Shown here: in pieces, positions 3,447 to 62,272 of the stretch | How positions within the stretch are numbered: the first letter of the stretch is position 1 | Layout: the number at the start of each line of letters is the position of its first letter | Source of the DNA: a bacterium | Lineage (GTDB): Bacteria; Patescibacteriota; Minisyncoccia; 1-14-0-10-42-19 | Direction: 5' to 3' | DNA length: 64,000 bases | Assembly (NCBI GenBank): GCA_030690215.1 | Contig: JAUYHD010000004.1 | Coordinates: 31,090 to 95,089, forward strand | Translations under genes and position numbers: made by a program | Notes under the pieces: model-generated | The model's input: only the letters and a program-made list of their open reading frames with translations | Database searches by the model: none | Told to the model about the DNA's origin: nothing

Positions 3447-6400
3447 TTAACTTTTCGCTTTTTCTCTTTCCTCTTGAGAAAGCTGCTGGCGTTCGCGCGC
3501 AAGGCGTCGCTCTTCAATGGCTTCGGTAAGATCCACTCCCTTTAATTCAACATCAAGCGCAAGACCTTTTAATTCATTAATCAATACATGAAATGATGTC
3601 GGCAAATTCGGCGTTTTAAATTCCTCCCCGCGAACAATAGAATCGTACGCTGCCGCGCGTCCAAGCACATCATCGGATTTTATGGTGAGCATCTCCTGCA
3701 AAAGATATGCTGCTCCATATCCTTCAAGCGCCCAGACTTCCATCTCTCCAAATCGCTGGCCTCCCCCCTGGGCTTTCCCCCCGAGAGGTTGCTGTGTAAT
3801 GAGCGAATACGGTCCGATGGAACGCATATGAATCTTGTCTTCCACCATGTGAATCAATTTCATCATATAAATTTGGCCTACGGTTACAAGATGGTCAAAT
3901 TTTTCACCGGTGCGCCCATCATAGAGCTCTACTTTCCCCTCTCGCGGCAAACCGGCTTTTTCCAATTCTGATTTAATTTCTTCCACAGTTGCGCCTTGGA
4001 ACGGAGGCACAAGCGCTTGGTACCCCAGCCGTTCGGCAGCCCATCCCAAATGAGTTTCAAGGATCTGCCCGATATTCATACGGCTTACCACACCGAGAGG
4101 ATTTAAAATCATATCAACGGGAGTGCCATCCTCCAAATACGGCATATCTTCTACCGGGAGTATTTTTGAAATAACCCCTTTGTTTCCATGGCGTCCCGCA
4201 AGCTTGTCTCCTACAGAAATTTTTCTGAGTTGCGCAATTTCTATTTGAATTAATTTAATAACTCCCGTATCAAGCTTGTCTCCCCGATCGCGAGAAAACA
4301 CCTTAACGCCTACCACCCGCCCCTGCTTCCCATGCGACATGCGAAGCGAGGTGTCGCGCACATCACGCGCTTTTTCCCCAAAAATAGCCCGAAGCAATCG
4401 TTCTTCCGAAGTAAGCTCCGCTTCTCCTTTCGGAGTAATTTTCCCTACAAGAATGTCGCCCGATCGAACCTCAGCACCAATTCGCACAACGCCATCTTCA
4501 TCTAAATCTTTCAATTTATCCTCCCCGACATTCGGAATGTCATACGTCGTAACTTCCGGACCAAGCTTTGTATCGCGTACGGGGATAGAAAAATCTTCAA
4601 TATGCACCGACGTAAAAATGTCTTCGTGCATCAGCTTTTCAGAAATAACGATTGCGTCTTCGTAATTAGCGCCTCCCCATGATACAAACGCAACCTTAAT
4701 ATTTTGACCCAATGCTACCTGCCCGTCTTGTGACGAAGATACATCTGCGAGAATATCGTCCTTCTTTACTTTATCGCCGGGGCTGACAAGCGGCCGTTGA
4801 GTAATAACCGTGTATTCATTTGAACGAAGATAATTCAATAACGGATATGTCGTGTCTTTTCGCTTTTCATTGCGGATGACAATCTTTTTTGCATCGGCAA
4901 ATTTTACGGTCCCTGCCTCCTCTGCCAAAATTAACCGGCCGGAATCGCGTGCTGCTTTTTCCTCAAAACCCGTCCCAACATACGGCACCTGTGCCTTTAC
5001 GCATGGGACTGCCTGGCGTTGCATGTTCGCGCCCATCATGACACGGTTTGCGTCATCATGCTCCAAAAACGGAATAAGAGACGTTGCGATGCTGAATGCC
5101 TGAAAGGGCGCTACATCAATCAAATCAACTTCTTCCACAGAGACAACCCCCGCTTGGCCCTTGGCGCGCGCCGGGACTTTCTCTTGAAGTATTTTTCCGT
5201 TTTCATCATACGAAATGGTTGATGGAGCAATATTTTCTTCAAGTTCTTGAAAAGCGGTAAGATACGTTATTTCATCGGTAATTATGCCGTTTACAACTTT
5301 TCTGTACGGAGTTTCAAGGATGCCAAAATCATTCACGCGGGCGAAACTCGCCAAATGCAACACAAGACCAATGTTCGGACCTTCCGGTGTTTGGATGGGA
5401 CAAATCCGGCCATAATGTGAGGGGTGGGCGTCACGAACTTCAAACCCGGCGCGCTCGCGTGTTAATCCTCCTTGCCCCAATGCTGAAACGCGGCGAAGAT
5501 GTTCCAGCTCGGCCAAGATATTGTCCTGATCCATGAATTGTGAAAGCTGGTTTGTTGTAAAGAATTCTTTAAGCACTGCCATAATCGGACGGGAATTGAT
5601 AAGCTGGGCCGGCGTCATTGTATAAATATCAAGCGTACTCATGCGATCTTGTATGATGCGCTTCATCCGCGTAAATCCAACACGCAAACGCTGCTGCAGC
5701 AATTCTCCGACACCGCGGATACGGCGATTGCCCAAATGGTCAATATCATCGGGTGAGGCGTGAGGTGTATTATTAAAATCAATAATGCGGCGAATAACCT
5801 CAACAAGATCTTCCTTTCTCAAAGTGCGGCTTGCTTCTTCAATCTTATCCAGTGGAAATCCGAGCCGTTCGTTAATCTTATAGCGTCCGACAACCGAAAG
5901 GTCATATCGTTCAGGAGAAAACATACCCTCAAGAAGTTCTCGCGCGTTGTCAATGGTTGCGAATTCTCCGGGTCGGATACGTTTGTAAATTTCCACATAT
6001 GCCTCATCCACCGTTGAGGTTGGGTCCCGGTCAAGCGTTTCTTCCATAAATGACACAGAACCCTTGTCTGCCCCATGAAATGCGTCTTTAATTGATTCGT
6101 CAGTTTCAAAACCAAAAATGCGCAAAAGCGCCGATACCGGTATCTTTCGCTTACGGTCAATGCGAACGTATAATGTATTGTCTGACCCTGTTTCAATCTC
6201 AATCCATGCCCCCCGGGAAGGAATGATTTTCGCGCCGAAAAATTTCTTTCCGCGAAGCACATTTGCCGTAAAATACACGCCAAAAGAGCGCGCAATCTGA
6301 GAAACGATTACACGCTCCACCCCATTTACAATAAACGTACCGCGGGATGTCATGAGCGGTATATCAGCAAGAAAAATTTCCTGCTCCTTTGATTCTTTTG

Positions 6401-6698
6401 TTATTTTGTTTCGGAGGCGAACCTTCGCGCGTAACGATGCTTCATACGAAAGATTGTGCGCTTTCGCAAAATATTCGTCGTGTTTCGGCTCTTCATCAAT
6501 GCTGTAACCAACAAACTCAAGCTCTAAATCTTTTTCTGCGTAATCTTTAATGGGCGAAAAATCTTTAAACAAATCATGAAGCCCGCGACTAAGAAGCCAT
6601 TTAAATGAATTAAGTTGAACAGAAACAAGGTTTGGGAGGGGGGCGAGATCTGCTCGACGCTTTGAAAAATACTTTTTTGGCAGCGTGCTTTTTTTCAT
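3447..6698 (-). CDS. rpoB: DNA-directed RNA polymerase subunit beta (RpoB)
   Basis: A 1083-aa ORF with typical RpoB blocks (GRYKINERLG, NRRIRGVGELL, MQRQAVP, ANMQRQAVPCVKAQVPYVGTG). It lies immediately upstream of rpoC on the same strand. Confidence 0.97.
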   Translation of the reverse strand: MKKSTLPKKYFSKRRADLAPLPNLVSVQLNSFKWLLSRGLHDLFKDFSPIKDYAEKDLELEFVGYSIDEEPKHDEYFAKAHNLSYEASLRAKVRLRNKITKESKEQEIFLADIPLMTSRGTFIVNGVERVIVSQIARSFGVYFTANVLRGKKFFGAKIIPSRGAWIEIETGSDNTLYVRIDRKRKIPVSALLRIFGFETDESIKDAFHGADKGSVSFMEETLDRDPTSTVDEAYVEIYKRIRPGEFATIDNARELLEGMFSPERYDLSVVGRYKINERLGFPLDKIEEASRTLRKEDLVEVIRRIIDFNNTPHASPDDIDHLGNRRIRGVGELLQQRLRVGFTRMKRIIQDRMSTLDIYTMTPAQLINSRPIMAVLKEFFTTNQLSQFMDQDNILAELEHLRRVSALGQGGLTRERAGFEVRDAHPSHYGRICPIQTPEGPNIGLVLHLASFARVNDFGILETPYRKVVNGIITDEITYLTAFQELEENIAPSTISYDENGKILQEKVPARAKGQAGVVSVEEVDLIDVAPFQAFSIATSLIPFLEHDDANRVMMGANMQRQAVPCVKAQVPYVGTGFEEKAARDSGRLILAEEAGTVKFADAKKIVIRNEKRKDTTYPLLNYLRSNEYTVITQRPLVSPGDKVKKDDILADVSSSQDGQVALGQNIKVAFVSWGGANYEDAIVISEKLMHEDIFTSVHIEDFSIPVRDTKLGPEVTTYDIPNVGEDKLKDLDEDGVVRIGAEVRSGDILVGKITPKGEAELTSEERLLRAIFGEKARDVRDTSLRMSHGKQGRVVGVKVFSRDRGDKLDTGVIKLIQIEIAQLRKISVGDKLAGRHGNKGVISKILPVEDMPYLEDGTPVDMILNPLGVVSRMNIGQILETHLGWAAERLGYQALVPPFQGATVEEIKSELEKAGLPREGKVELYDGRTGEKFDHLVTVGQIYMMKLIHMVEDKIHMRSIGPYSLITQQPLGGKAQGGGQRFGEMEVWALEGYGAAYLLQEMLTIKSDDVLGRAAAYDSIVRGEEFKTPNLPTSFHVLINELKGLALDVELKGVDLTEAIEERRLARERQQLSQEEREKAKS

Positions 6699-6732
6699 AA
6701 AAAGAAGAATTTTGATTATATGAAAACAAAAT

Positions 6733-6781
6733 AAAGCAAAAACAACTGTTCCCCTGTTTAGAAGGGGCTTTTTTGCTTTAT
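6733..6781 (-). terminator. Long stem-loop ('aaagcaaaaa...gcccct tctaaac aggggaac...tttttgcttt') followed by a U-rich tract on the minus-strand transcript. Either the terminator of the upstream FtsW-like gene or a leader attenuator in front of rpoB.
   Basis: An inverted repeat is visible in the sequence. It lies between the candidate promoter (6819-6848) and the rpoB start. By analogy, an attenuator is known upstream of rpoB in E. coli. Confidence 0.4.
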
Positions 6782-6818
6782 TCTCTATTTATTTAGGTGT
6801 ATTTCAGCACCTTGGTTC

Positions 6819-6848
6819 CAGTATAATCAAGTGAGTTTATTTGTCAAC
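6819..6848 (-). promoter_or_regulatory. Candidate sigma70-like promoter for rpoBC on the minus strand (TTGACA-16nt-TATACT)
   Basis: The reverse complement of 6819-6848 reads gTTGACAaataaactcacttgatTATACTgg. It sits about 120 nt upstream of the rpoB start. Confidence 0.4.
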
Positions 6849-7041
6849 CCCGTTAGAAATCTGGCCTGTGGATACAGAGAGTAAAGAAAATTTGATCTAT
6901 GTATTATGAAAATCCACCTTTGTGCGTACAAAAAAAATTTGAGCACAAATTTTTCTGTCCAAGACTTTCCGCCAGAGGCGGATCTGCCTCAGGCACGACT
7001 AACGAGGTCAAGACAAGCTGTGGATAATGCGCTATTTTTAT

Positions 7042-8145
7042 TTATGACACATCAATCTCATCCCCCACCACCTGCATTCTCCTGCTCTGTTTCATGTTCA
7101 TCCATATACCAAGACCCAAAAAAAGCATGAGCAAATGGGACCCGCCATAGCTCACAAAAGAAAGAGGAAGTCCGGTAATCGGCAAAAGACCTATATTCAT
7201 GCCCACATGAACAATAAAATGACTCATGATAATCAAAGAAAAACCAATTGAAAAAAGGCGGACAAAATTATCAGAACTTGTGCGGGCGGGTATGAGTAAA
7301 CGCCGAACAAGCATTACAAAAAAAAGAATAAGCAGTAAGGCGCCCGCAAACCCCCATTCCTCCGCAAACGCCGCAAAGATAAAATCGGTTTCGTGTTCAG
7401 GAAGAAACTTTAGCCGAGACTGTGTCCCATATCCCACCCCTTGACCAAAAAGCTGGCCTGACCCTACTGCTATTTGTGTCTGTACCATGTGATACCCAGC
7501 ACCTTGAGGGTCTATATAGGGATTTACAAACGTCGTAATACGATTTTTTTGGTACGGCGCAAGAACAAATACCCATACGGTAACAAACGCAAGAATGGCA
7601 ATCCCAAGCACAAGCGCTACATAACGAAGTGAAATGCCGGAGCTCATAACCATGCCAAACCATACAATAAAAAAAATAATCGCGGAACCAAAATCGGGCT
7701 GTAAGAGCACCAATACTGCGGGGATCGCCGCATATAATCCAGATATAAAAATATGCTTGAATCGCGCAATGTCAATGTGGCGTCGGGAAAAATATTTCGC
7801 AAGCAATAACACCACTATGAGTTTCATAAACTCTGATGGCTGGATAGAAAAAAGAGGGAACCGAAACCAGCTCGTTTCGTTTGCAAGAAAAAGCGCTGCC
7901 AAAAACAAAAGACCTGCCCCATAAAATACCATAAGAAAACCGCTTGAATAAAAAAAGCGCCAGTCAACCTGGGCGAGTCCGATAAATGCCGCAATTCCTA
8001 CCGCAATCCATATGATTTGCCGCCAAAAGAAGTAATCATCTCCAGCCCCTCCTCCAAATGATTTCATCGTAAAAAGCCCCACAAGAAGCAAGGGTGCAAT
8101 AATCAAAAAAAGAGACCAATCAATTGAGCGAAATGTCCGCATCAT
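7042..8145 (-). CDS. FtsW/RodA/SpoVE (SEDS) family cell-wall polymerase
   Basis: A 367-aa polytopic membrane protein. It has the family-typical 'FIFAAFAEEWGFAGALLLILFF' block and a C-terminal 'PLSFVSYGGSHLL' block. Confidence 0.85.
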   Translation of the reverse strand: MMRTFRSIDWSLFLIIAPLLLVGLFTMKSFGGGAGDDYFFWRQIIWIAVGIAAFIGLAQVDWRFFYSSGFLMVFYGAGLLFLAALFLANETSWFRFPLFSIQPSEFMKLIVVLLLAKYFSRRHIDIARFKHIFISGLYAAIPAVLVLLQPDFGSAIIFFIVWFGMVMSSGISLRYVALVLGIAILAFVTVWVFVLAPYQKNRITTFVNPYIDPQGAGYHMVQTQIAVGSGQLFGQGVGYGTQSRLKFLPEHETDFIFAAFAEEWGFAGALLLILFFVMLVRRLLIPARTSSDNFVRLFSIGFSLIIMSHFIVHVGMNIGLLPITGLPLSFVSYGGSHLLMLFLGLGIWMNMKQSRRMQVVGDEIDVS

Positions 8146-26277: not shown

Positions 26278-29200
26278 TTAGTTAGAAGACGTCAATGTCT
26301 CAAAGGACATGTTCGTCGTCGGCAAACCGGGTACAAGATAACCGTTCGTAAAGTCAAGATCGGTAAGCGCAATTGACGTTGTCGTAGAATTCGGTGACCA
26401 GATAAGGTCATCATTCGTGTCAGTGTCAATAAATGTCGCGCTTGCCATAGCGATCTTGTCTGTTGCGTTTATGTTTTCATCCGGGTGAGGGGTAGCGGTT
26501 GGATATGCCGCATCTCCCATCAATCGTACTTCAAACGATTCTTCGCCAGAGCTTGTCTCAACGCCATACACGTCTGCTGCAAAGCGGAACCATCGTGTTT
26601 CCCCTGAAGGAATCTTGTACGTGGTTGTCGCTGTGCCACAGGTTGTCTTGTTGAAGTTTACGTTAATGTCAGTGTTGTCAAGACCAATCACGCTTACGTT
26701 ATCCGTTGCCTCAACTGCTGCTGTCTTGTCGGAAGACTTAAACATACCCCCAAAGAGAAGAATAGCATCAGTTGGGTACGCGCAATTCTCGGCATTCAAC
26801 AGACCTGTCGTTGAAAACGACGTGTCGGGTGAGGCAAAACTGGAGTCAGTAAATGCGTACACCGAATATCCAGATGTTGACGCATTTGCAAGGTTCCCGG
26901 TTGAAGATGACAGCTGGAATGTAAACTTGTACAACTGTACGTCGTTACCAACCGCCGTTACCTTGAATTTGTAGATTGTTCGGTCAGAACCAGTCTGCAT
27001 AGTTCGTTCTGAAGTTGACAAGTCAATCTTTGCAAATGACGGGTACGACTTCATGATACGAACACCGGTAATGGTTGTGTCGCTGCCTGTTGGCGAGATG
27101 TTTGATCCTGATCCCACGCCAACACCATAGTTTCCTCCGCTCAAACCAAGCGCACCGGCATCCCACTGCACTTGGAGAAAGTCACCGGATGCTACGAGCG
27201 GACCTGACACAGTAATGCCACCAATATCACCTTTAACAGTCATAGTCTTTGAGCTGTCTTTCGGCACTCGGAATGCGCCTGAAGCAATTACTGAAGATGT
27301 CGCGAAATCTCCGTTTGCTCCGAATGTCGCATCCGCTAGCCATGTTGAGCCATCGTACAAGCTGACTTTTTGGCCTATCAAATCAATCGGTGAGTTCGTT
27401 GCAACAGCAGAAAGCTCGAAGTTTACGCGGCGAATGTCAATGTCTTCAAACGATGCCGAAAACTTAAGTTTCGCAAGCGTTACGCCTGTTGTTCCTGACT
27501 GAACAATGCTGTATCCCGGCGTTGAATCATCAGTAACGGTATATGTCCCGCCTGTTTGAACAGTCATTGTTTGGCCGACGACACCTGTCCCATCGCCTGA
27601 ACCATTTTCAGTAACAGTTGCTGACTGCCCTGAAGTCACTCCAGTCGGCGTAGGAGATGAAGCAGTGCTGTATCCCCATCGGAATCCTGTGTTCGCAGCT
27701 GCACCGGTTGAAATATTACACTTTAATCCTATCGTCTTTACTGTCCCTTTCGGAACAATCAAACCGCTGCCCAAGAACGTAAATGACGTTGAAGATCCAA
27801 CCGCGCTTGGGTCTACTCCATCAGACACGATTGTCGCGCCGTCATAGAGCTTACATGCAGTCAAGTTAGTTGCTGTTCCTCCCACCGGTGTTCCATATTC
27901 AAGCGGAAGTGAAGCAAACCGAATGTCGTCCCCAGAATTTGTAGCGTCAAGTTCATAATTCGCGAAAAGAAAATCACTTGTGCCTGCTACAACATTCTGC
28001 GCGAGCGGTACGCTTGAAACGCTGATTGTTACTGCCGCCGCTTTAAGCGTCATTGTGTTTCCGCTGATTGCCGATGATGGAGACGGTGTAATAGATACTG
28101 ATGTCGTCTGTCCGGTTACTGTCGTCCACTGGGTGCTTGGGGTTGTGGATGCGTGTACCGTGTCATTGTTGTCAAAGTCACTTCCATATTTACCCTTCAA
28201 TGTGTACGTTTTCTTCCCAACAGGGAATATGATTGTTTCGGTGAAAGTAACCGTACCATACGAACCGCTTACCACTACTCCGTCTGCGGGACCTGCCAAC
28301 ACTACGCCGTCATCGCGAACAAGCGAAATGTTTGTAAGGTCTGCAGGATCACCTGTTCCGGTAGTTCCAAGACCAAAGATGATCTGCGCTACCGATATTT
28401 CTTCACCCTTTATTTCTACGTTGAACCCACCAATTGCCTGGTCAGGAACGTTTTCTGCAACGTTTTGTGACTGAACAGCTGATGAATTTTCTACCGTAAG
28501 AGTTCCGGTATCAATAGTAACTTGGTAGCCATCAAACCATGGGTTTGTATCCTCATGGAACGCGCCATCGTCAGTGCCTGAAGCGTCAGTGCCATTTGGA
28601 GGCGAGATATTGTATCCGAATGTCTTTCCGTAGAACGTTACGTCTGTCCTGCGGAAGATATCAAAGTCAATCGTCCTGCTTGATCCGTCTACAATATCGC
28701 CTTTCACAGAAACTTCCGTTGAAAATCCTTTTGCAATAGAAACGCCTGCTCCAAACGACGCGCTGTAGTATTTGCCGTCATCAGAAACCTTCGCGTCATA
28801 CGCTGTGCCGTCTACTACAATTTTTACGTTCGCCAAGTCTGATGAAGCCGCCGAACCTGACTGGTTAAAGCGGATGTTCTTCAAAAGAAGATCTTCTGCC
28901 GAACCTGCGGTAAATTTAACCGATGTGAATGTGTATGCTGTTTCACCTACCTTCTTGTTTACGCTTGAACCCGGGTCCAATGGACCAATCGCGTTCGTAA
29001 CGCTACCAATAGTGAGTGAATTGTTTGCGGTGTGGATTGCTCCCTTAATAGGAAGTGACCCCTCTAATGTTGCAGTACCCTTCAACGCAATTGCGGTTAC
29101 CGCCAAAATAGGCGCTTCTCCTACATTTGCTGAAAGACTCGCAGCCATGTCACCTCCAACGGTGACTGTCTTTGTTGTTCCTGCCTTAATTGTGAAGTCT

Positions 29201-29961
29201 TCGGTAAGGGTTGCCTGGTGAAGCGAGTTCAATGATTTGGAAAGCCCGATTCGGGTTCCATCGCTATCAATCAAGACAACACCTGAAAATGCGGAGTCTG
29301 CACCCAATCCCTGTCGTTCAACAGTGACTGAATCAACGATTACATCGCTTGCTCCCGCGCTTAATGTAATAACCGTGAATGGAACTCCTTGTGCGTTCTT
29401 TACCGCCAAAGAATCTGCCGGCTGGGTGCCCGCGGCAACCAATAAGCTACCAGCTGATACCGGCGTAGTTGGTGTGGTTGGCGTAGTTGGTGTCCCAAAC
29501 AATGCATTTAATTTAGCTCGCGTTCCCGCTCCTACAAATCCTGTAGGCGCGCTAAGTCCCAATGGAGTCAACACTTCAGAAGCATATTTGTTCTGGAAGC
29601 AGTTGGCCGCATCACGCGTGATAGGACCAAAGTATCCTGTGTAAGATCCGAAAGTGAAGCATCCTTCCAAGTCCAGCGCTTGCTGGAGGGCTTTTACTTC
29701 ATCGCTGGTCATTCCCATTGAAAGGTTCGTATTGAACACATGGGAAAATCCCGATGAGCCTCCCGACAAACCTGAAAGCTGTGTTTGCAATGTTGCAATC
29801 TGCGCTAACAGTGCTTGGATTTGTGCTTGAAGGTCAGCAACTGTTTGCGCTTGAGCTGCTACCGGAATCAAATATCCGATACCCCCAAGCCACAAAGCAG
29901 TTGTTACACTGAGAACGGTGGAAGCAATTTTTGCTTTCATCGTCCCTTTAAAGCTACTCAT
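26278..29961 (-). CDS. Giant secreted cell-surface protein with a PG_binding_1 (peptidoglycan-binding) domain and a long Thr/Ser/Gly-rich beta-rich region
   Basis: A 1227-aa ORF. It has a signal peptide/TM at the N-terminus, a coiled QAQIQALLAQIATLQTQL segment, the PG-binding-like motif MTSDEVKALQQALDLEGCF...YFGPITRDA, and a TPTTPTTPTTP linker. Confidence 0.75.
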   Translation of the reverse strand: MSSFKGTMKAKIASTVLSVTTALWLGGIGYLIPVAAQAQTVADLQAQIQALLAQIATLQTQLSGLSGGSSGFSHVFNTNLSMGMTSDEVKALQQALDLEGCFTFGSYTGYFGPITRDAANCFQNKYASEVLTPLGLSAPTGFVGAGTRAKLNALFGTPTTPTTPTTPVSAGSLLVAAGTQPADSLAVKNAQGVPFTVITLSAGASDVIVDSVTVERQGLGADSAFSGVVLIDSDGTRIGLSKSLNSLHQATLTEDFTIKAGTTKTVTVGGDMAASLSANVGEAPILAVTAIALKGTATLEGSLPIKGAIHTANNSLTIGSVTNAIGPLDPGSSVNKKVGETAYTFTSVKFTAGSAEDLLLKNIRFNQSGSAASSDLANVKIVVDGTAYDAKVSDDGKYYSASFGAGVSIAKGFSTEVSVKGDIVDGSSRTIDFDIFRRTDVTFYGKTFGYNISPPNGTDASGTDDGAFHEDTNPWFDGYQVTIDTGTLTVENSSAVQSQNVAENVPDQAIGGFNVEIKGEEISVAQIIFGLGTTGTGDPADLTNISLVRDDGVVLAGPADGVVVSGSYGTVTFTETIIFPVGKKTYTLKGKYGSDFDNNDTVHASTTPSTQWTTVTGQTTSVSITPSPSSAISGNTMTLKAAAVTISVSSVPLAQNVVAGTSDFLFANYELDATNSGDDIRFASLPLEYGTPVGGTATNLTACKLYDGATIVSDGVDPSAVGSSTSFTFLGSGLIVPKGTVKTIGLKCNISTGAAANTGFRWGYSTASSPTPTGVTSGQSATVTENGSGDGTGVVGQTMTVQTGGTYTVTDDSTPGYSIVQSGTTGVTLAKLKFSASFEDIDIRRVNFELSAVATNSPIDLIGQKVSLYDGSTWLADATFGANGDFATSSVIASGAFRVPKDSSKTMTVKGDIGGITVSGPLVASGDFLQVQWDAGALGLSGGNYGVGVGSGSNISPTGSDTTITGVRIMKSYPSFAKIDLSTSERTMQTGSDRTIYKFKVTAVGNDVQLYKFTFQLSSSTGNLANASTSGYSVYAFTDSSFASPDTSFSTTGLLNAENCAYPTDAILLFGGMFKSSDKTAAVEATDNVSVIGLDNTDINVNFNKTTCGTATTTYKIPSGETRWFRFAADVYGVETSSGEESFEVRLMGDAAYPTATPHPDENINATDKIAMASATFIDTDTNDDLIWSPNSTTTSIALTDLDFTNGYLVPGLPTTNMSFETLTSSN

Positions 29962-34156: not shown

Positions 34157-37100
34157 TTGCGTAGTGTTCTCCGCATATTACAATCTAATTTTATCAATTA
34201 CATGCGTACTATTACTAAAAATATGAGATATGTTATGTTTTTTGCAGGTTTTATGGGAATAGCTGTGTTTTTGGCGTTTTCGCCATCAACGAGCCATGCG
34301 ATCAGCTTTCCTTCATGCTCTCTTTCCCCCCAGCAAGATAGGATTATTGTTCAGTTCAACCCTATCACAAAACTCTGGGCAAATGAGCAATACAAAATGG
34401 GGGGGCCGTTTTCGGCATCAATTCCCGCGGGAGAATACAAAATAACAGCAATGTCCTTTGACGACCACTTGGAACGGTCACATCAAAACCAGCCGAATGA
34501 GCAGTGGTTTATGATTCTTAAGAACAACAACAGCACTGTTGCTCAAACGGGTTCTACGAATGATTTGCCGGACAACGCGGATGTGCGCGTAGACGTTGTA
34601 AATATCTCACTCGTTATACCGCAATCGGTTACATCAATCATCACGTTTCATACGATGTACCCCAACAGCAATCCAAACAGTATTTACCCAATATGCGCCG
34701 CATTTGATAGGATACACCAGCCGGAACCCCCTACCGTAGATATTAAAGCAAACGGAAGTGATGGACCGATTACTATCGGATTCAACTCAAGCGCAACAGT
34801 AAGCTGGACATCGTCTAATGCATCAAGCTGTACTGCGTCAGGCGCATGGTCAGGATCAAAAAGCCTTTCAGGTTCTCAATCAACCGGAAATCTTACCGGA
34901 TCAAAAACATACACCATAACATGTACGGGATCCGACGGCAGTGACTCTGATAGCGTAACAATAAACGTACAACCACCCGCATCTCCAACAGTAGACATTA
35001 AAGCAAACGGAAGTGATGGCCCTGTAACAATCGGATTTAATTCCAGCTCAAATCTTACCTGGACCTCTTCTGACGCATCAAGCTGTACCGCGTCAGGAGC
35101 ATGGTCAGGATCAAAAAGCCTTTCAGGTTCTCAATCAACCGGAAATCTTACCGGGTCAAAAACATACGTTATAACATGTACGGGACAGGGTGGAAGCGAT
35201 TCGGATAGCGTGACGGTGACTGTGCAGTCGCAAAATCTTCCGACAGTAGACATCACCGCAACCCCATCATCAATCATACAGGGGGATACGTCATCGTTGG
35301 GATGGACATCCTCAAACGCAGATTCATGTTTCGCAACAAACGGATGGAGCGGAACAAAATCGCTTTCAGGCAATCAAGCAGTTTCGCCGCAAAACACCGC
35401 AACCTACACAATCACCTGTTCTAATGGTGCAGGCCAGGCATCAGACAGCGTAACAATTACCGTAAGCGTACCTCAATCGCTTCCGACAGTTGCTATTTCC
35501 GCAAACCCAAATCAGGTAGCGCAGGGAAACCCAAGCGTCCTTACATGGACATCTGCAAATGCAGACACATGCACCGCATCAGGTGCATCCGACTGGAATG
35601 GTTCGCGCAATATATTCGGAAATCAGGTAGTCTCTCTTTTTAATACAACAACCTACACGATTACCTGCTCCAACAGCACAGGACAAGCATCAGACAGCGT
35701 AACTGTTTCGGTCCAATCAATCACCCCCTCTGCCGACATTAAAGCGAATGGGAGCGACACATCTATCACTATTTCGCCCAACAGTTCAGCGACTATCAGC
35801 TGGACATCAAGCAATGCCGCAAGCTGTTCTATTTCACCTACCGGCTGGTTTGGGACATCGGGATCGCAATCAACGAGTAATCTCACCAACTCAATTACAT
35901 ACACAATAAATTGTAGCGGAGTGACAGGAGGCACGGCATCAGACAGTGTAACTGTGAACATCCAAGACAACCTCCCAACGGTGGATATTTCCGCGAATCC
36001 GGGATTTATAACCCAAGGAAATTCAACGGTGCTCACCTGGACTTCTTCAAACGCAGATTCATGTTTTGCAACAAACGGATGGAGCGGAACAAAATCGCTT
36101 TCCGGGAACCAATCAACATTCCTCACGCAGACAACCACATATACAATCACTTGTTACAATAACGCGGGGCAAGCAACAGACAGCGTAACTGTTTCGGTAC
36201 AAGCAATAACGCCTACGGTAGATATTACCGCCGCCCCTATAACAATAAACCGCGGCGAAAGCACTGTGCTTGTATGGAGCTCCGCAAACGCGGACTCATG
36301 TTTTGCAACAAACGGATGGAGCGGTTCTAAATCGCGCTCAGGATCAGAAGTAACGGCACCGCAATTTGATACCACATACACAGTCACCTGTGCTAAAGGA
36401 GGACAAAGCGTTTCGGATTCAGTTACGGTTTTTGTAAACGCGAACCAACCACCCATTACAGGAACATTCAATGTTGCCTGTTCCGTAAGCAGCCCGACAA
36501 TTACCCTAGGCGACAGCGTTTCTTTTGTCGCAGGGTATGCCGGAGGTGTTGCCCCCGTTACATTTCAGTGGAGCGGAGATGTCACCGGATTTACGCAAAG
36601 CCGTGTCACAAACTTTAGCACAACAGGAACAAAATTTGCGACAGTAACGGTAACCGACGCGCAGGGACGAAACAATTCCGCAAACTGTTCTGTACAGGTA
36701 GTCCCCGCGACGGTGGTAAGTGCTGCGCCTCCGCAACCTCCGACAGTTATCACAGCGACAACGAACACGCAACCGACGTCTTGTTGCTGTTGCAATGGAG
36801 TGCCAACGCAAATCCAATATGACTCAAATGGAAATCCAATTACCGTTGCGTCAGATACTCAAGACCGGTCAATGCTCGCTTCATTATTCACTACGCAAAG
36901 CGGAAATCCATCAACGCTCTTATACATGCTCTTGTTCCTATTGATTGTTCTCGCGATTATCGCCATGGTTCGCTATCTCTTCGTAGATAAGCCGGTAAGA
37001 CGGTACGAATATGGATATCGTCAAGAACAATATCCATACGAACGAAAGGGGTATGGATACCAAAACGGGAACTCCAACGGATATGCAAACGGATATGCCA

Positions 37101-37219
37101 GCGACGACGAACGATTCGAACCAAAAAAGCGCCAGCCCCAGCCATACAACGAAAACGAACGGTTTGAGCCGAAACGAAACGGATACCCGCGTCCTACATA
37201 TACCGAACAGTCCCGCTAA
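34157..37219 (+). CDS. Giant cell-surface protein: signal peptide, about nine tandem Ig-like repeats of about 100 aa, and a C-terminal TM anchor with a Tyr/Gly/Asn-rich cytoplasmic tail
   Basis: A 1020-aa ORF. The unit PTVDIKANGSDGPITIGFNSSATVSWTSSNASSCTASGAWSGSKSLSGSQSTGNLTGSKTYTITCTG..SDSDSVT is repeated with variation (DNA repeats at about 34740-36470). There is a CCCC motif just before the TM helix LLYMLLFLLIVLAIIAMV. Confidence 0.8.
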   Translation: MRSVLRILQSNFINYMRTITKNMRYVMFFAGFMGIAVFLAFSPSTSHAISFPSCSLSPQQDRIIVQFNPITKLWANEQYKMGGPFSASIPAGEYKITAMSFDDHLERSHQNQPNEQWFMILKNNNSTVAQTGSTNDLPDNADVRVDVVNISLVIPQSVTSIITFHTMYPNSNPNSIYPICAAFDRIHQPEPPTVDIKANGSDGPITIGFNSSATVSWTSSNASSCTASGAWSGSKSLSGSQSTGNLTGSKTYTITCTGSDGSDSDSVTINVQPPASPTVDIKANGSDGPVTIGFNSSSNLTWTSSDASSCTASGAWSGSKSLSGSQSTGNLTGSKTYVITCTGQGGSDSDSVTVTVQSQNLPTVDITATPSSIIQGDTSSLGWTSSNADSCFATNGWSGTKSLSGNQAVSPQNTATYTITCSNGAGQASDSVTITVSVPQSLPTVAISANPNQVAQGNPSVLTWTSANADTCTASGASDWNGSRNIFGNQVVSLFNTTTYTITCSNSTGQASDSVTVSVQSITPSADIKANGSDTSITISPNSSATISWTSSNAASCSISPTGWFGTSGSQSTSNLTNSITYTINCSGVTGGTASDSVTVNIQDNLPTVDISANPGFITQGNSTVLTWTSSNADSCFATNGWSGTKSLSGNQSTFLTQTTTYTITCYNNAGQATDSVTVSVQAITPTVDITAAPITINRGESTVLVWSSANADSCFATNGWSGSKSRSGSEVTAPQFDTTYTVTCAKGGQSVSDSVTVFVNANQPPITGTFNVACSVSSPTITLGDSVSFVAGYAGGVAPVTFQWSGDVTGFTQSRVTNFSTTGTKFATVTVTDAQGRNNSANCSVQVVPATVVSAAPPQPPTVITATTNTQPTSCCCCNGVPTQIQYDSNGNPITVASDTQDRSMLASLFTTQSGNPSTLLYMLLFLLIVLAIIAMVRYLFVDKPVRRYEYGYRQEQYPYERKGYGYQNGNSNGYANGYASDDERFEPKKRQPQPYNENERFEPKRNGYPRPTYTEQSR

Positions 37220-57411: not shown

Positions 57412-58299
57412 TTATTTCATTATTTCAGAAAAATTGGGCATAATGCCCGCGAGCTTCAAAGCACGAATCCAGCGGGTCATTCCTATCCCGCCACCCGAAC
57501 GAACAAGCGGATTTTTTTCTACCATTTTTAAAAATGCATTCAATTCTTTCATTACCGCCTCTTCTGAAAATTCAGCAAACATTCTCGCGGCGTATTCCCC
57601 ATTGCTAATGTTAAGAAAGCGATCTCTCATCTCTCCGACATTGCAACTTCTTTGCGCAGAACCAACTGTTTCAACGCCATACACTAACACATCAATTTTC
57701 CTTGATACATCCATATCCCTCCACATATTCCAAAATGGATTGGAGTATTCCGGAAAATATTCTGAAAATACAACGGGGCCAAATTCTTTCCCCATCATTC
57801 GTTCATGCTCATCTGTTAATTCTTGCGTATTATAACGCTCTGCCATATCAAGATATCGCACATGAATATAATTTTCTTTTGAACCGAAGCCTACAAATTC
57901 AAGCAATCTTTCTTCCAAGGCTCGTAAATCGTTAATATCTCCATGCATCTCAAATTCAAACATAGGAAATATCAAATTGTGCCTTCCTTTTTTCGGCCGC
58001 GCTTCTCTCCGATAACTCGTGGTTGTACAAAATACTCCCCTTCTTACGTTTGGGTTCGTCAAAAGCTCCCATTCTAAATGCATCTGATTTGTTTGATGAA
58101 GAGCCCACACCTTTCCTAAAATCCAAAATGCCATGATGCTTTCCGGGACCTCACATGCAGAAAGATTATACAGATTGTGATCGTAATACCCTTTGTAAAA
58201 ACCTTCTCTCCTAAAGAATTCGGTCAGTTGCGCTTCTGCAAAATCCCACTCTTGGACAGGAATACGATCAATATATTCGCTTGCTTCAAATGGATTCAT
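57412..58299 (-). CDS. AsnRS-like catalytic-core paralogue lacking the anticodon-binding domain (archaeal-type asparagine synthetase A / aspartate-ammonia ligase)
   Basis: A class II aaRS motif-2-like block YRREARPKKGRHNLIFPMFEFEMHG and a motif-3-like block SGGGIGMTRWIRAL. The 295-aa length matches archaeal AsnA. Confidence 0.65.
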   Translation of the reverse strand: MNPFEASEYIDRIPVQEWDFAEAQLTEFFRREGFYKGYYDHNLYNLSACEVPESIMAFWILGKVWALHQTNQMHLEWELLTNPNVRRGVFCTTTSYRREARPKKGRHNLIFPMFEFEMHGDINDLRALEERLLEFVGFGSKENYIHVRYLDMAERYNTQELTDEHERMMGKEFGPVVFSEYFPEYSNPFWNMWRDMDVSRKIDVLVYGVETVGSAQRSCNVGEMRDRFLNISNGEYAARMFAEFSEEAVMKELNAFLKMVEKNPLVRSGGGIGMTRWIRALKLAGIMPNFSEIMK

Positions 58300-58402: not shown

Positions 58403-58684
58403 CTACGAACGGGCAAGGATCTTTTTTATATATCCTTCGCGCCCCAATAATCGTGCCTTGATACTGCTCCCGCGATTATACCCTCCTATCTTGCCGTCAG
58501 AACGGATGACTCTGTGGCATGGGACCGCGGGATTATAATTTTTGTTCAGAATATTTCCTACTGCGCGATATGCTTTCGGGTTTCCTGCGCGGCGCGCAAC
58601 TTTTATATAGGTAAGCGTTTTTCCTTTTGGGATGTTCGCGACAACGCTATACACTTTTTCTGAAAATGTTTTCATGAATATCAC
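58403..58684 (-). CDS. Methylated-DNA--protein-cysteine methyltransferase (MGMT) DNA-binding/active-site domain protein
   Basis: The PCHRV active-site motif followed by GKIGGY. 93 aa. Confidence 0.7.
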   Translation of the reverse strand: MIFMKTFSEKVYSVVANIPKGKTLTYIKVARRAGNPKAYRAVGNILNKNYNPAVPCHRVIRSDGKIGGYNRGSSIKARLLGREGYIKKILARS

Positions 58685-59259: not shown

Positions 59260-59417
59260 TTATTCCACCCAGCACATAACTCAAATATAGAGACTCACAC
59301 TGAAATCTTGTGCGTATGTTCCATGGTTATCAAAGCAATAAGGTAATATCCTAAAAGTTATGTGCTGGGTTTATTATCTGCAAACCGCGCAGTAGTGCGG
59401 GCAGATAATAATAAAAA
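59260..59417. repeat. Repeat family D, copy 2 ('ttattccacccagcacataac...gttatgtgctgggtttattatctgcaaaccgc...gcgggcagataataa')
   Basis: Matches 16107..16311. Stem 1 is maintained by compensatory substitutions. Confidence 0.5.
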
Positions 59418-59455
59418 GGCCGCTTTTGTTTCCAAAAAAACGGCCTTTCGTATAT

Positions 59456-61066
59456 TTATATATACATTAAATCGTCATATTCCTTGAGCATTCGGTCTGC
59501 GGTCCATTTCTGTTCTGCCTCTTTCATCTCCAAAAATGCCTTATTGTTCCACCGAAATTGATCACCAAACGAAGGAAAAATTTCTTCGTCAAAACATTTC
59601 CGTAATTCACCGGCGTCATGCGCGTCTTGATCCGAATCATGCACGCCATTGGAGCCGAATAAAAATGCATGTTCCGGATTTGCTTCAAGCATCCAGCCGT
59701 CTGGCGTTGAACAATTTATCGCGCCAACCATCGCGGCAGACATTCCCGATGTCCCGCATGCTTCATAGGGCGCGCGAGGGGTATTCAGCCACACGTCAGC
59801 TCCCGCTTTTAATATCTTGTTCATCTCCATGGTAAACCCAGGCAACATTACAAGATGAGGCAGGGATTTGCTTTGGGAATAAATATAATTCCACGCATGA
59901 ATCATAGCTTTGTCATCCGGATGAGGCTTGCCTGCATAAATCACCTGGAAACGCCCGGAAACAAGATGATTTTTCAGCCATTCAAAATCATCAAAAAGCA
60001 GTTTTGGCCTTTTGTATTCTGCAAAACGCCTTGCCCACACTACTATCATGCTTTCTTTCTCTAAAGAAACGCCGGACATATCTCTTACATAATCAATAAG
60101 ATATTTCCTATGCGTTCTTTTTTGGTGCATAAGTTCGTGGGGTGTGCGCGCGTTTCTGAACTCTTTGTACTGCCAAAAATCCTGGGATGTGCCGTTCGTA
60201 ATTGAAATCATTGGTCGTTGCCGTCTCTCGTCCACAAACCTGCCTACCAATTCGCGTGCCTTTTTTAAATGTTTTTTTGAAACCGCGTTTGTCTGCCCCG
60301 CAAGATAGACACCCACGCCCGTCATGTTAAACTCCTCGCTGTCCCCGCCTATCTCCTCAAGTATTCCCTTGTCGTACCCGCCCAAATACGCAACCCGATC
60401 TATAGGATAACGAGGATTGCCCGCGTCAACCGGCGTGTGTGTAGTAAAACGAACCTGGCTACGTACCATCTTAAGCGAATTGCGTCTTCCTTCTTTTTCA
60501 TATGCATGCAAAAGCTCAACCGCCGTGAACACACAGTGCGATTCGTTGATATGGAATATAACATCTAAGCCCAAATAATCTATAAGCGCGACGGTTGCTT
60601 TTCCTATAAGAAGCGACTGGCATATTTTTCTGTCCAAATTGGCACCTCTCGCATAACTCCCGCCATATAAATGCAATGTATTTAATCGCGCAAGATCATT
60701 ATTTTCCGGAATATCGGCATCAAAGAAAAATATTTCAGGAAAACCAAATGTTCCGTGAGGAAGCCTATGTACCAATACCTGCACGGGTGATCCGCAGAGC
60801 TCAATTGTCAAATAAATTCCCGTGTTTTCCAGAATGCCCGGATAATATCGCGGAGTATACGAAATTGTCATGCCGGATCCGTCTACTCCCTGATCGTAAT
60901 ATCCTTCGCGGGGCAAAATAGCAAACCCAACCATATCCAATTCTTTTTTATACGCGGCAGTAAGAATAGCCCTGCTAAATTCTCCAAGCCCCCCTGTTCC
61001 GGTATGAAGCTCTGAAGAAATAAAAACTTCCGGTGTTACAAATGCTATCGTTTTCTTTCTTTTCAT
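59456..61066 (-). CDS. Alpha-glucan (glycogen/maltodextrin) phosphorylase-family protein, short archaeal-type. Ser sits at the position expected for the PLP-binding Lys.
   Basis: The N-terminus IAFVTPEVFISSELHTGTGGLGEF, ARRFAEYKRPKLLF, and EACGTSGMSAAMVGAINCSTPDGW. The family motif as recalled is EASGTS(N/G)MK. Confidence 0.7.
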   Translation of the reverse strand: MKRKKTIAFVTPEVFISSELHTGTGGLGEFSRAILTAAYKKELDMVGFAILPREGYYDQGVDGSGMTISYTPRYYPGILENTGIYLTIELCGSPVQVLVHRLPHGTFGFPEIFFFDADIPENNDLARLNTLHLYGGSYARGANLDRKICQSLLIGKATVALIDYLGLDVIFHINESHCVFTAVELLHAYEKEGRRNSLKMVRSQVRFTTHTPVDAGNPRYPIDRVAYLGGYDKGILEEIGGDSEEFNMTGVGVYLAGQTNAVSKKHLKKARELVGRFVDERRQRPMISITNGTSQDFWQYKEFRNARTPHELMHQKRTHRKYLIDYVRDMSGVSLEKESMIVVWARRFAEYKRPKLLFDDFEWLKNHLVSGRFQVIYAGKPHPDDKAMIHAWNYIYSQSKSLPHLVMLPGFTMEMNKILKAGADVWLNTPRAPYEACGTSGMSAAMVGAINCSTPDGWMLEANPEHAFLFGSNGVHDSDQDAHDAGELRKCFDEEIFPSFGDQFRWNNKAFLEMKEAEQKWTADRMLKEYDDLMYI

Positions 61067-61247
61067 TGCATTCCCCCCTTTCTTTTTTTGTCATCTGTGT
61101 AGTTTTCAAACAACTCAAAACATGCAAATTATACTACAAAAACAAATCAAAGTCAATTTTTTACGCGACCTCCGCCCTATACAACTTGCCACAAAACAAT
61201 AAAGGTATACAATTGAATGAAACGCACTTTACCAAAGGAGGGTTTGC

Positions 61248-61789: not shown

Positions 61790-62272
61790 TTATTCGTAAT
61801 TCTCTTGCAGTAAAGAAATTTTTCCTGCGCGAAGCTCTTCGCGCAATTTCATCCAGATTTTCCCAAGATAGTTTGAGCCATCTTTATGCGCGCCCCATCC
61901 CCAAAAATCATCGCGATGAGAATCCTCAACTATTATCCTGTCGCCCGTTTCAAGCAACTTCTTTTGAATATAATAATATTGCGACAGCTTTGCGCGAACA
62001 ATCTCTTCCATTACACCCAATTTTATAAGAGACCAATACCCCCTCACCTTGTCTTTATGCACTACTGTTGCAAGCTTGTAGGCGTCATGCGCTGACCGAG
62101 CATTTTTTATTTTATTTCTGATTTCTTCATCTTCAAATTTAGTTGCCTGGTAGGCGTGTTCCGAAGTTTTCCAAATTTCTCCACACCACCTTACTTCAAA
62201 AGACGCGAAATTTGAAAAAATATACCACTCATATTCATAAAACAATGCATGTGTACTATTTTCTTTGCCCAC
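61790..62272 (-). CDS. NADAR (YbiA-like, DUF1768) domain protein
   Basis: FYEYEWYIFSNFASFEVRWCGEIWKTSEHAYQATKF and a C-terminal LGKIWMKLR. Confidence 0.8.
   Translation of the reverse strand: MGKENSTHALFYEYEWYIFSNFASFEVRWCGEIWKTSEHAYQATKFEDEEIRNKIKNARSAHDAYKLATVVHKDKVRGYWSLIKLGVMEEIVRAKLSQYYYIQKKLLETGDRIIVEDSHRDDFWGWGAHKDGSNYLGKIWMKLREELRAGKISLLQENYE

Follow-up and report, generated by a model that had tools for sequence, protein, structure and literature searches.

Serine at the position of the cofactor lysine in a short-form alpha-glucan phosphorylase from Patescibacteria

As far as we are aware, pyridoxal 5'-phosphate (PLP) has long been taught as indispensable to every alpha-glucan phosphorylase. 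A phosphorylase gene in the DNA analysed here (the window, a stretch of 64,000 nucleotides of contig JAUYHD010000004.1) raises the question of how such an enzyme might do without it. The gene (59456..61066, minus strand) has an ATG start codon and encodes a 536-residue short-form alpha-glucan family phosphorylase (glycosyltransferase family GT35, GP1/TIGR02094 type) of a lysine-less subgroup. A first-pass annotation of the sequence had noticed a serine in place of the PLP-binding lysine and had left three readings side by side: a pseudo-enzyme, a different cofactor arrangement and a sequencing error. Only the different cofactor arrangement survives the present analysis, and it is backed by the precedent of an archaeal enzyme. 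By analogy with that enzyme, the protein is probably a functional, PLP-free short-form (about 540 residues) alpha-1,4-glucan phosphorylase of the lysine-less subclade of GP1 clade VIII, with a remodelled pocket mechanism.

Serine in the cofactor lysine column

The query protein passes the cut-offs of both family models, scoring 279.1 bits against TIGR02094 ('alpha-glucan family phosphorylase', cut-off 191.7) and 53.3 bits against PF00343 (cut-off 27). Its length places it with its homologues, which have 513-592 residues, and it has no N-terminal extension. An AlphaFold2 model calculated with 117 homologues has a predicted local distance difference test value of 95.9 and a predicted template modelling (TM) score of 0.94. 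A Foldseek search of the Protein Data Bank (PDB) with this model placed entries 20yr/9l6i at the top, the Segatella copri glycogen phosphorylase matching with a TM-score of 0.89 normalised to the query. The next matches were the E. coli, human, rabbit and plant phosphorylases, and the top 50 matches listed were glycogen, starch or maltodextrin phosphorylases throughout.

The segment E435-A-C-G-T-S-G-M-S443 (59738..59764, minus strand; residues 435-449 of the product read EACGTSGMSAAMVGA) aligns with the EASGTxxMK-type cofactor/phosphate loop, with the lysine replaced by serine. In the phmmer alignment with PDB entry 9l6i, E435-ACGTSGM-S443 pairs with E601-ASGTSGE-K609 of the S. copri enzyme, in which Lys609 carries PLP (PNAS 2026, PMC12912991). 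In the alignment with the Streptococcus mutans enzyme (PDB 4l22), Ser443 lies opposite the lysine of EASGTGNMK. MAFFT alignments of 121 to 385 homologues likewise give Ser443 the place of the lysine that forms the Schiff base with PLP (Lys680 in rabbit, Lys609 in S. copri). The first-pass annotation had considered that a neighbouring lysine might belong in the PLP site, but no adjacent lysine of the query can be shifted into that column in the phmmer and MAFFT alignments. The replacement itself is therefore borne out by the alignments to 9l6i, 4l22 and the MAFFT sets. E435, A436 and T439 of the loop show little or no variation in either the lysine-less or the lysine-type set. With the Schiff-base lysine absent, canonical phosphorylase cofactor chemistry cannot apply, as the annotation had reasoned. 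It had also read the TCT codon correctly but had set it a few bases off, at 59740-59745; the codon for Ser443 occupies 59738..59740 on the minus strand and reads from 59740 to 59738.

The chance that the serine stems from a sequencing or assembly error, or that the gene is a recent pseudogene, is negligible. Such a reading has the unexpected residue itself in its favour and nothing else. TCT differs from AAA and AAG at all three codon positions, so Ser443 is not due to one miscalled base. The reading frame is unbroken across 536 residues and is provided with a promoter and a terminator, and an identical protein is encoded on a contig of a separate Logan assembly. Relatives at 89%, 72% and 64% identity have the same motif as the query, as do hundreds of homologues. 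The error proposed by the annotation is excluded on these grounds.

The residue at this column was counted in three samples. The first comprised the 120 best database matches and the query (about 540 residues, mostly Patescibacteria/Parcubacteria), with S in 100, G in 9, K in 5, T in 5, C in 1 and A in 1 of the 121 sequences. The second comprised the best 80 loci of a scan of one genome per species, all of the same length class, in which T 46, S 18, K 14 and A 2 were found, leaving 66 of 80 without lysine. Thr is the prevailing residue in Chryseobacterium, Hymenobacter, Pedobacter, Mucilaginibacter and Chitinophagaceae, and Ser in Akkermansia, Gastranaerophilales/Vampirovibrio and Campylobacterales. 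The 14 lysine loci are mixed, with several metagenome-assembled genomes of Bacteroidota, Gorillibacterium, Dethiobacter, Planctomycetaceae, Holophagaceae and actinobacterial genomes. For the third sample, further homologues from a second search and from a profile search run exhaustively over 1.84 billion representatives (11,632 matches, 1,671 of them at E <= 1e-30) brought the number of usable sequences to 371, GP1 enzymes of 700-1,400 residues included. Lysine is absent from 223 of these aligned relatives (S 131, T 73, G 12, A 5, C 1, N 1) and present in 148. The lysine-less relatives belong to Patescibacteria, Bacteroidota, Akkermansia, Melainabacteria and Campylobacterota.

Serine at this position is thus not unusual. 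In these alignments Ser or Thr is the norm for the subgroup and the query is an ordinary member, which is a situation that the annotation had itself named as one that would undo its case. Its view of the serine as an anomaly of this gene does not hold, since the lysine-less state accounts for 223 of 371 relatives and has already been published. A neighbour-joining tree places the query with Niyogibacteria-like relatives inside a 102-member Patescibacteria clade, mostly of the Ser type. This clade is sister to an 84-member clade of Bacteroidota, Verrucomicrobia, Melainabacteria and Campylobacterota, with lysine-type short forms as the outgroup.

Scores against TIGR02094 descend in steps, from 580-628 bits in lysine-type short forms through 436 in lysine-less Bacteroidota/Akkermansia members, 388 in lysine-less Patescibacteria and 331 in lysine-type Patescibacteria to 279 in the query. 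The NCBI model gives every one of them the name 'alpha-glucan family phosphorylase' and does not mark the absent cofactor lysine.

Residues that change with the lysine

Column-by-column comparison of the 371 sequences showed that column 420 separates lysine-type from lysine-less sequences as well as the lysine column does, a covariation missed by the first-pass annotation. Lysine occupies column 420 in 221 of the 223 lysine-less sequences and in 0 of the 148 lysine-type ones, which have V (78), T (40), I (10) or other residues (20). Lys443 and Lys420 occur together in 0 of 371 sequences, and two have neither; these are the lysine-less exceptions P0024, with Arg at column 420, and P0154, with Gln. 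A Fisher test on the 420/443 table gives p about 1e-103, a value that ignores shared ancestry, and the meaningful figure is the number of independent transitions on the tree, at least two and probably three. The query has Lys420 (codon AAA, 59807..59809, minus strand), 23 residues upstream of Ser443 in the segment MNKILK420AGADVW, on helix 413-422 of the AlphaFold2 model. It may be the replacement for the lost lysine.

One helical turn before Lys420 lies Asn416 (codon AAC, 59819..59821, minus strand). This column is Ser in 93% of the lysine-less sequences (Ser 208, Asn 10, Met 4 and Gly 1 of 223) and Ala or Gly in 127 of the 148 lysine-type ones (Ala 88, Gly 39). Asn416 is confined to the small subclade of the query. 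The signature derived from the present comparison, Lys420 with Ser or Asn at 416, fits the query with K420 and N416. P0154 combines Gly443 and Gln420 with a degenerate loop, EGCGSSGMG, and may be a decaying copy from a Giovannonibacteria-like lysine-type group.

Two Patescibacteria groups with Lys443 (P0079/P0100/P0101/P0145-147 and P0097/P0160) are nested among Ser-type sequences; P0100 is from Giovannonibacteria. In both, Gln, Ser or Asn stands at 420 in place of Lys, Met or Cys stands at 416 in place of Ser, and two residues are deleted straight after the lysine (GMKA--NG and GMKG--NG). In the alignment these groups look like reversions to a PLP-type site. Columns 416, 420 and 443 are the only ones that discriminate in all three available contrasts, that with the outgroup and the two nested in Patescibacteria. 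Because the deletion common to both nested groups may make them one, only at least two independent transitions are claimed from the sequences. Within this set, the loss of the lysine is strictly coupled to the gain of Lys420 and Ser416 (Asn in the query) on the preceding helix.

Aligned by hand, column 420 matches Ile657 of the rabbit enzyme and Val of 9l6i, and column 416 matches Ala653 of the rabbit enzyme and Ala of 9l6i. Both columns fall on the helix after the strand at whose end rabbit Tyr648 lies, a helix that neighbours the lysine-carrying one, and from Rossmann-fold geometry we infer that they line the pyridoxal pocket. On contacts of rabbit Ala653 and Ile657 with PLP nothing usable was found in the literature, and their placement follows the hand alignment.

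It is conceivable, and we propose it tentatively, that columns 416, 420 and 443 act together as a cofactor module that can be switched. Aided by Ser or Asn at 416 and Ser or Thr at 443, Lys420 would with its amino group replace the pyridoxal ring and hold free orthophosphate or another anion for the acid-base role of the PLP 5'-phosphate. The module would have flipped in both directions, the Lys443 reversions of Patescibacteria with their two-residue deletion included.

Catalytic residues, precedents and the rebuilt pocket

The remaining residues of the active site were compared between lysine-less (n=214) and lysine-type sequences. The GGLG substrate/phosphate loop, G25-G-L-G28, is encoded at 60983..60994 on the minus strand; G25 and G26 are invariant, and L27 and G28 are at least 97% conserved. 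The phosphate-binding motif R346-R-F-A-E-Y-K-R353 (60008..60031, minus strand; residues 345-358 read ARRFAEYKRPKLLF) aligns with rabbit K568, R569, Y573, K574 and R575. Its R346, R347 and K352 equal R507, R508 and K513 of the S. copri enzyme, whose roles have been described (PMC12912991). In the lysine-less set, R347 and K352 are invariant and Y351 and R353 have one exception each. E13, G25-G28, the catalytic H177, H210, N291, R346/R347, Y351, K352, R353, K380, E435 and T439 are all conserved equally in lysine-less and lysine-type sequences. As far as sequence comparison goes, the fold, the family membership and the glucosyl- and phosphate-binding residues are intact, and among these features only the Schiff-base lysine is missing. 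The equal conservation points to purifying selection on the active site, which argues against a pseudo-enzyme.

The closest studied counterpart comes from Methanococcales, in whose phosphorylases Thr, and sometimes Ser, replaces the lysine (bioRxiv 10.1101/2024.09.29.615707; FEBS J 2025;292:5818). The recombinant Methanococcus maripaludis enzyme (MmGP, Q6LXX5, Lys to Thr) phosphorolyses glycogen, and ultraviolet absorbance, fluorescence, a cyanohydrin assay and mass spectrometry found it to be without PLP (bioRxiv 10.1101/2024.09.29.615707). Its authors proposed that a second orthophosphate replaces the cofactor 5'-phosphate and that Phe26 fills the pyridoxal pocket (bioRxiv 10.1101/2024.09.29.615707). 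Like the query, MmGP is short (about 60 kDa with its tag), has no N-terminal regulatory extension, contains the GGLG and EASGT motifs and has a small hydroxyl residue for the Schiff-base lysine, and it serves here as the mechanistic model for the query. However, it is archaeal, whereas the query is patescibacterial; it has Thr instead of Ser, and Phe26 where the probable equivalent in the query is Glu29. The best 80 loci of the genome scan were bacterial only, no archaeal names came from the representative profile search and cluster look-ups, and Q6LXX5 was not among the top matches of the homologue, genome and profile searches.

In the accessible part of a recent phylogeny, GP1 clade VIII (about 550 residues) has two subclades, in one of which the lysine is changed to Thr, Gly or Ala (Nat Commun 2026;17:5756, PMC13324651). 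That lysine-less subclade is described there as Bacteroidota with Melainabacteria, Archaea and Verrucomicrobia, and the loss as coincident with the split of the clade (PMC13324651). As far as that description extends, the subclade is of the same length class as the query and has TIGR02094-type sequences. Our neighbour-joining tree reproduces the published split and adds the Patescibacteria clade, and the genome loci reproduce taxa given in the accessible part of the article, namely Flavobacteriia, Chitinophagia, Cytophagia, Akkermansia and Gastranaerophilales. The same part differs from the present results in making no mention of Ser as a replacement, of Patescibacteria or of the coupled Lys420/Ser416 change. 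In the accessible portions of the literature on lysine-less phosphorylases, no mention was found of patescibacterial Ser-type members or of the strict lysine swap between 443 and 420, and those of a 2024 Chem Rev review (PMC11046441) contain nothing on lysine-less enzymes. Structurally, the query is matched best by the S. copri glycogen phosphorylase (9l6i, PMC12912991), a canonical enzyme of the GP1 type, with 22% identity and common catalytic residues. Unlike the query, the S. copri enzyme is a pentamer of 852-residue chains with additional N-terminal and helical domains, carries PLP on Lys609 and has Val and Ala at columns 420 and 416, respectively.

Further changes accompany the loss of the lysine. 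Nine positions were found at which at least 85% of the lysine-type GP1 enzymes agree on one residue and the lysine-less clade departs from it. D33 of GGLGxLxGD is replaced by Ser, K36 by Arg, H294 by Asn, Asp or Ser, G343 by Val, F344 by Trp, A381 of GKAHP by Pro, G388 by Met or Ala and W459 by Ile or Met, while E151 becomes variable. Residues newly conserved in the lysine-less clade include K316 and N393. Taken together, the lysine-less pocket looks rebuilt, not preserved for the same ligand.

In the PLP-free mechanism that we favour, the query enzyme would hold no covalent PLP, as in the M. maripaludis Lys-to-Thr enzyme. The anion site for the cofactor 5'-phosphate would be kept, made up of R346, T439, S440 and the N-terminus of helix 439-445, all of them conserved. 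A free second orthophosphate in this site would be the acid-base partner and would relay a proton to the substrate phosphate. Lys420, residue 416 and Ser443, with the other changes of the lysine-less clade, would fill the pyridoxal pocket, and Lys420 may supply the charge that retains the free phosphate. Glucose-1-phosphate would be the product, from glycogen or maltodextrin. A non-covalent anion in the 5'-phosphate site can stand in for the cofactor phosphate, as the two-phosphate model requires; Parrish, Uhing and Graves are said to have found (Biochemistry, 1977) that rabbit phosphorylase reconstituted with pyridoxal is activated by free phosphite or phosphate. In that system the pyridoxal ring is present, whereas in the query protein side chains would replace it.

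The coupling of columns 420 and 443 could also mean that the Schiff-base lysine has been relocated, PLP remaining the cofactor but tethered through Lys420 and the chemistry remaining canonical. The mutual exclusion of Lys443 and Lys420 (both in 0, neither in 2, n=371) is the pattern that the transfer of a single essential amino group would leave. In Patescibacteria the swap went back at least once, conservation still extends to the residues that bind the 5'-phosphate and to the Tyr matching rabbit Tyr648, and the genome of a relative encodes PLP enzymes, so the cofactor would be on hand. However, four methods found MmGP, likened to the query by its published description, to be PLP-free. The replacement of nine lysine-type residues and the change of column 416 from Ala/Gly to Ser also speak of a remodelled pocket instead of a moved tether. 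We consider the relocation unlikely.

A vacated cofactor pocket might instead accommodate a nucleotide sugar or another phosphorylated donor, making the protein a transferase similar to those of family GT5. The ADP-glucose glycogen synthase GlgA of that family has the GT-B fold, an R...K phosphate-binding pair, an E-x-C/S-G loop and weak hidden Markov model similarity in common with the query, from which it differs in its nucleotide-sugar donor. The query has a weak match to the GlgA model TIGR02095, many homologues have PF08323 matches, and ADP-glucose strongly inhibits MmGP (half-maximal inhibitory concentration 0.045 mM, competitive with phosphate; bioRxiv 10.1101/2024.09.29.615707). However, the TIGR02095 score of 32.5 bits is far under the cut-off of 328, the top 50 structural matches listed are phosphorylases only, and MmGP phosphorolyses glycogen. 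GlgA-model scores are 47-61 bits in lysine-type short forms against 32-40 in lysine-less ones. Because it is stronger in the lysine-type forms, the GlgA similarity reflects common GT-B ancestry. The synthase-like reading was rejected on this comparison, and a donor-using transferase is very improbable.

The query and its nearest relatives (P0001-P0004) depart even from residues that are at least 85% conserved in lysine-less sequences, with Y23G, G32R, Y411F, S416N and N447V. Y411F is at the position of rabbit Tyr648. The subclade also has a three-residue insertion (278-280), a change of Ala15 to Phe and Glu at column 29. Aligned in this way, these residues show that the surroundings of the former cofactor site have changed for a second time. 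They enter the case for a dead pseudo-enzyme that would merely bind alpha-glucan or be regulatory, since Y23G, Y411F, S416N and N447V add to the absence of a lysine regarded as essential and to a context free of glycogen genes. However, across 214 lysine-less sequences of several phyla the residues for catalysis and phosphate binding vary as little as they do in lysine-type enzymes, the enzyme with the same lysine loss, MmGP, is active, and the query is unlike the decaying-looking P0154 (EGCGSSGMG, neither lysine), which exemplifies relaxation. A pseudo-enzyme, the annotation's first reading, is therefore decidedly unlikely.

Several observations weigh against a functional, PLP-free enzyme. 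PLP absence in a purified active enzyme is established for MmGP alone and is extended to the query by analogy, and MmGP was likened to the query by its published description. The Tyr equivalent to rabbit Tyr648 is 96% conserved in the lysine-less set, which fits a retained aromatic ligand too. Column 29, the probable match of MmGP Phe26 (a guess), is Phe or Tyr in 103 of 116 non-Patescibacteria members, but in Patescibacteria it is V in 46, Y in 15, F in 13 and T in 12, and Glu in the query. Phe30 and Phe15 of the query are near this column. Among seven members compared, the query has the lowest TIGR02094 score (279 bits against 331-628). Because of this score and the deviations of its subclade, the activity of the query is less certain than that of typical members. 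Finally, no glycogen genes were found among the 20 open reading frames of the window scanned with Pfam, and none flank the homologue in four other Patescibacteria loci or in the Chryseobacterium and Akkermansia loci.

The locus and its place in the family

The phosphorylase gene is predicted to be a self-standing transcription unit with its own promoter, ribosome-binding site and terminator, all on the minus strand and recognised by match to consensus only. A sigma-70-like promoter, TTGACT-17-TATAAT with 11 of 12 matches, lies at 61128..61156 and is followed by a ribosome-binding site, AGGGGGG, at about 61073-61080. A hairpin resembling an intrinsic terminator (59414..59449) begins 7 bases past the stop codon.

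The nearest named relative, at 72% identity, is encoded in a Candidatus Niyogibacteria genome with the same downstream gene order (membrane protein, MGMT, class II aminoacyl-tRNA-synthetase-like protein, VanY). The host is a Patescibacteria genome close to Candidatus Niyogibacteria. On the Niyogibacteria contig PFCO01000003, two PLP enzymes (Cys_Met_Meta_PP and Beta_elim_lyase, 5281-7985) are encoded 2-5 kb upstream of the orthologous phosphorylase. The lineage therefore uses PLP, and a lack of the cofactor does not account for the missing lysine.

Pfam assigned the neighbours in the window to a subtilase, a class II aminoacyl-tRNA-synthetase-like protein, MGMT, NADAR, VanY, RpoB, FtsW, GT2 and others. 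The phosphorylase unit is flanked by a NADAR-domain protein (61790-62272, minus strand) and a 93-residue stand-alone MGMT DNA-binding domain (58403-58684, minus strand), neither of which is tied to glucan metabolism. The gene at 57412-58299 (minus strand) encodes a 295-residue class II aminoacyl-tRNA-synthetase core (tRNA-synt_2) without the anticodon-binding domain, possibly a paralogue of the AsnA or EpmA kind; its place beside the phosphorylase is conserved in the Niyogibacteria relative. Two large reading frames, at 26278-29961 (minus strand, 1227 residues) and 34157-37219 (plus strand, 1020 residues), have no Pfam match at E <= 1e-4. The contexts of P0002, P0028, P0075, P0119, P0107, P0103 and P0196 and of the Chryseobacterium (L008) and Akkermansia (L035) loci were uninformative. 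The sole glycogen cluster seen around any family member was in marine Bacteroidota (P0193). On marine Bacteroidota contigs from TARA (L089/L090, 3260-9614), a Thr-type lysine-less phosphorylase gene lies directly downstream of a GT5-type synthase, a 343-residue unknown protein and an isoamylase-like gene.

It took one archaeal enzyme and one phylogeny, published in 2024-2026, to overturn the view that PLP is indispensable. The query gene brings no new principle, lysine-less phosphorylases having already been published; it adds the extension to Patescibacteria and the coupling of 416, 420 and 443. In the sampled Patescibacteria, Bacteroidota and Akkermansia, the lysine-less state is the usual one for short forms, on which automatic annotation is silent. 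Patescibacteria carry a branch mainly of the Ser type, some members of which appear to have gone back to lysine. The new lysine one helix away, which accompanies the loss of the old one in 221 of 223 sequences, is a testable clue to the PLP-free mechanism. The switchable module, if true, would be the first residue-level account of how a phosphorylase dispenses with PLP.

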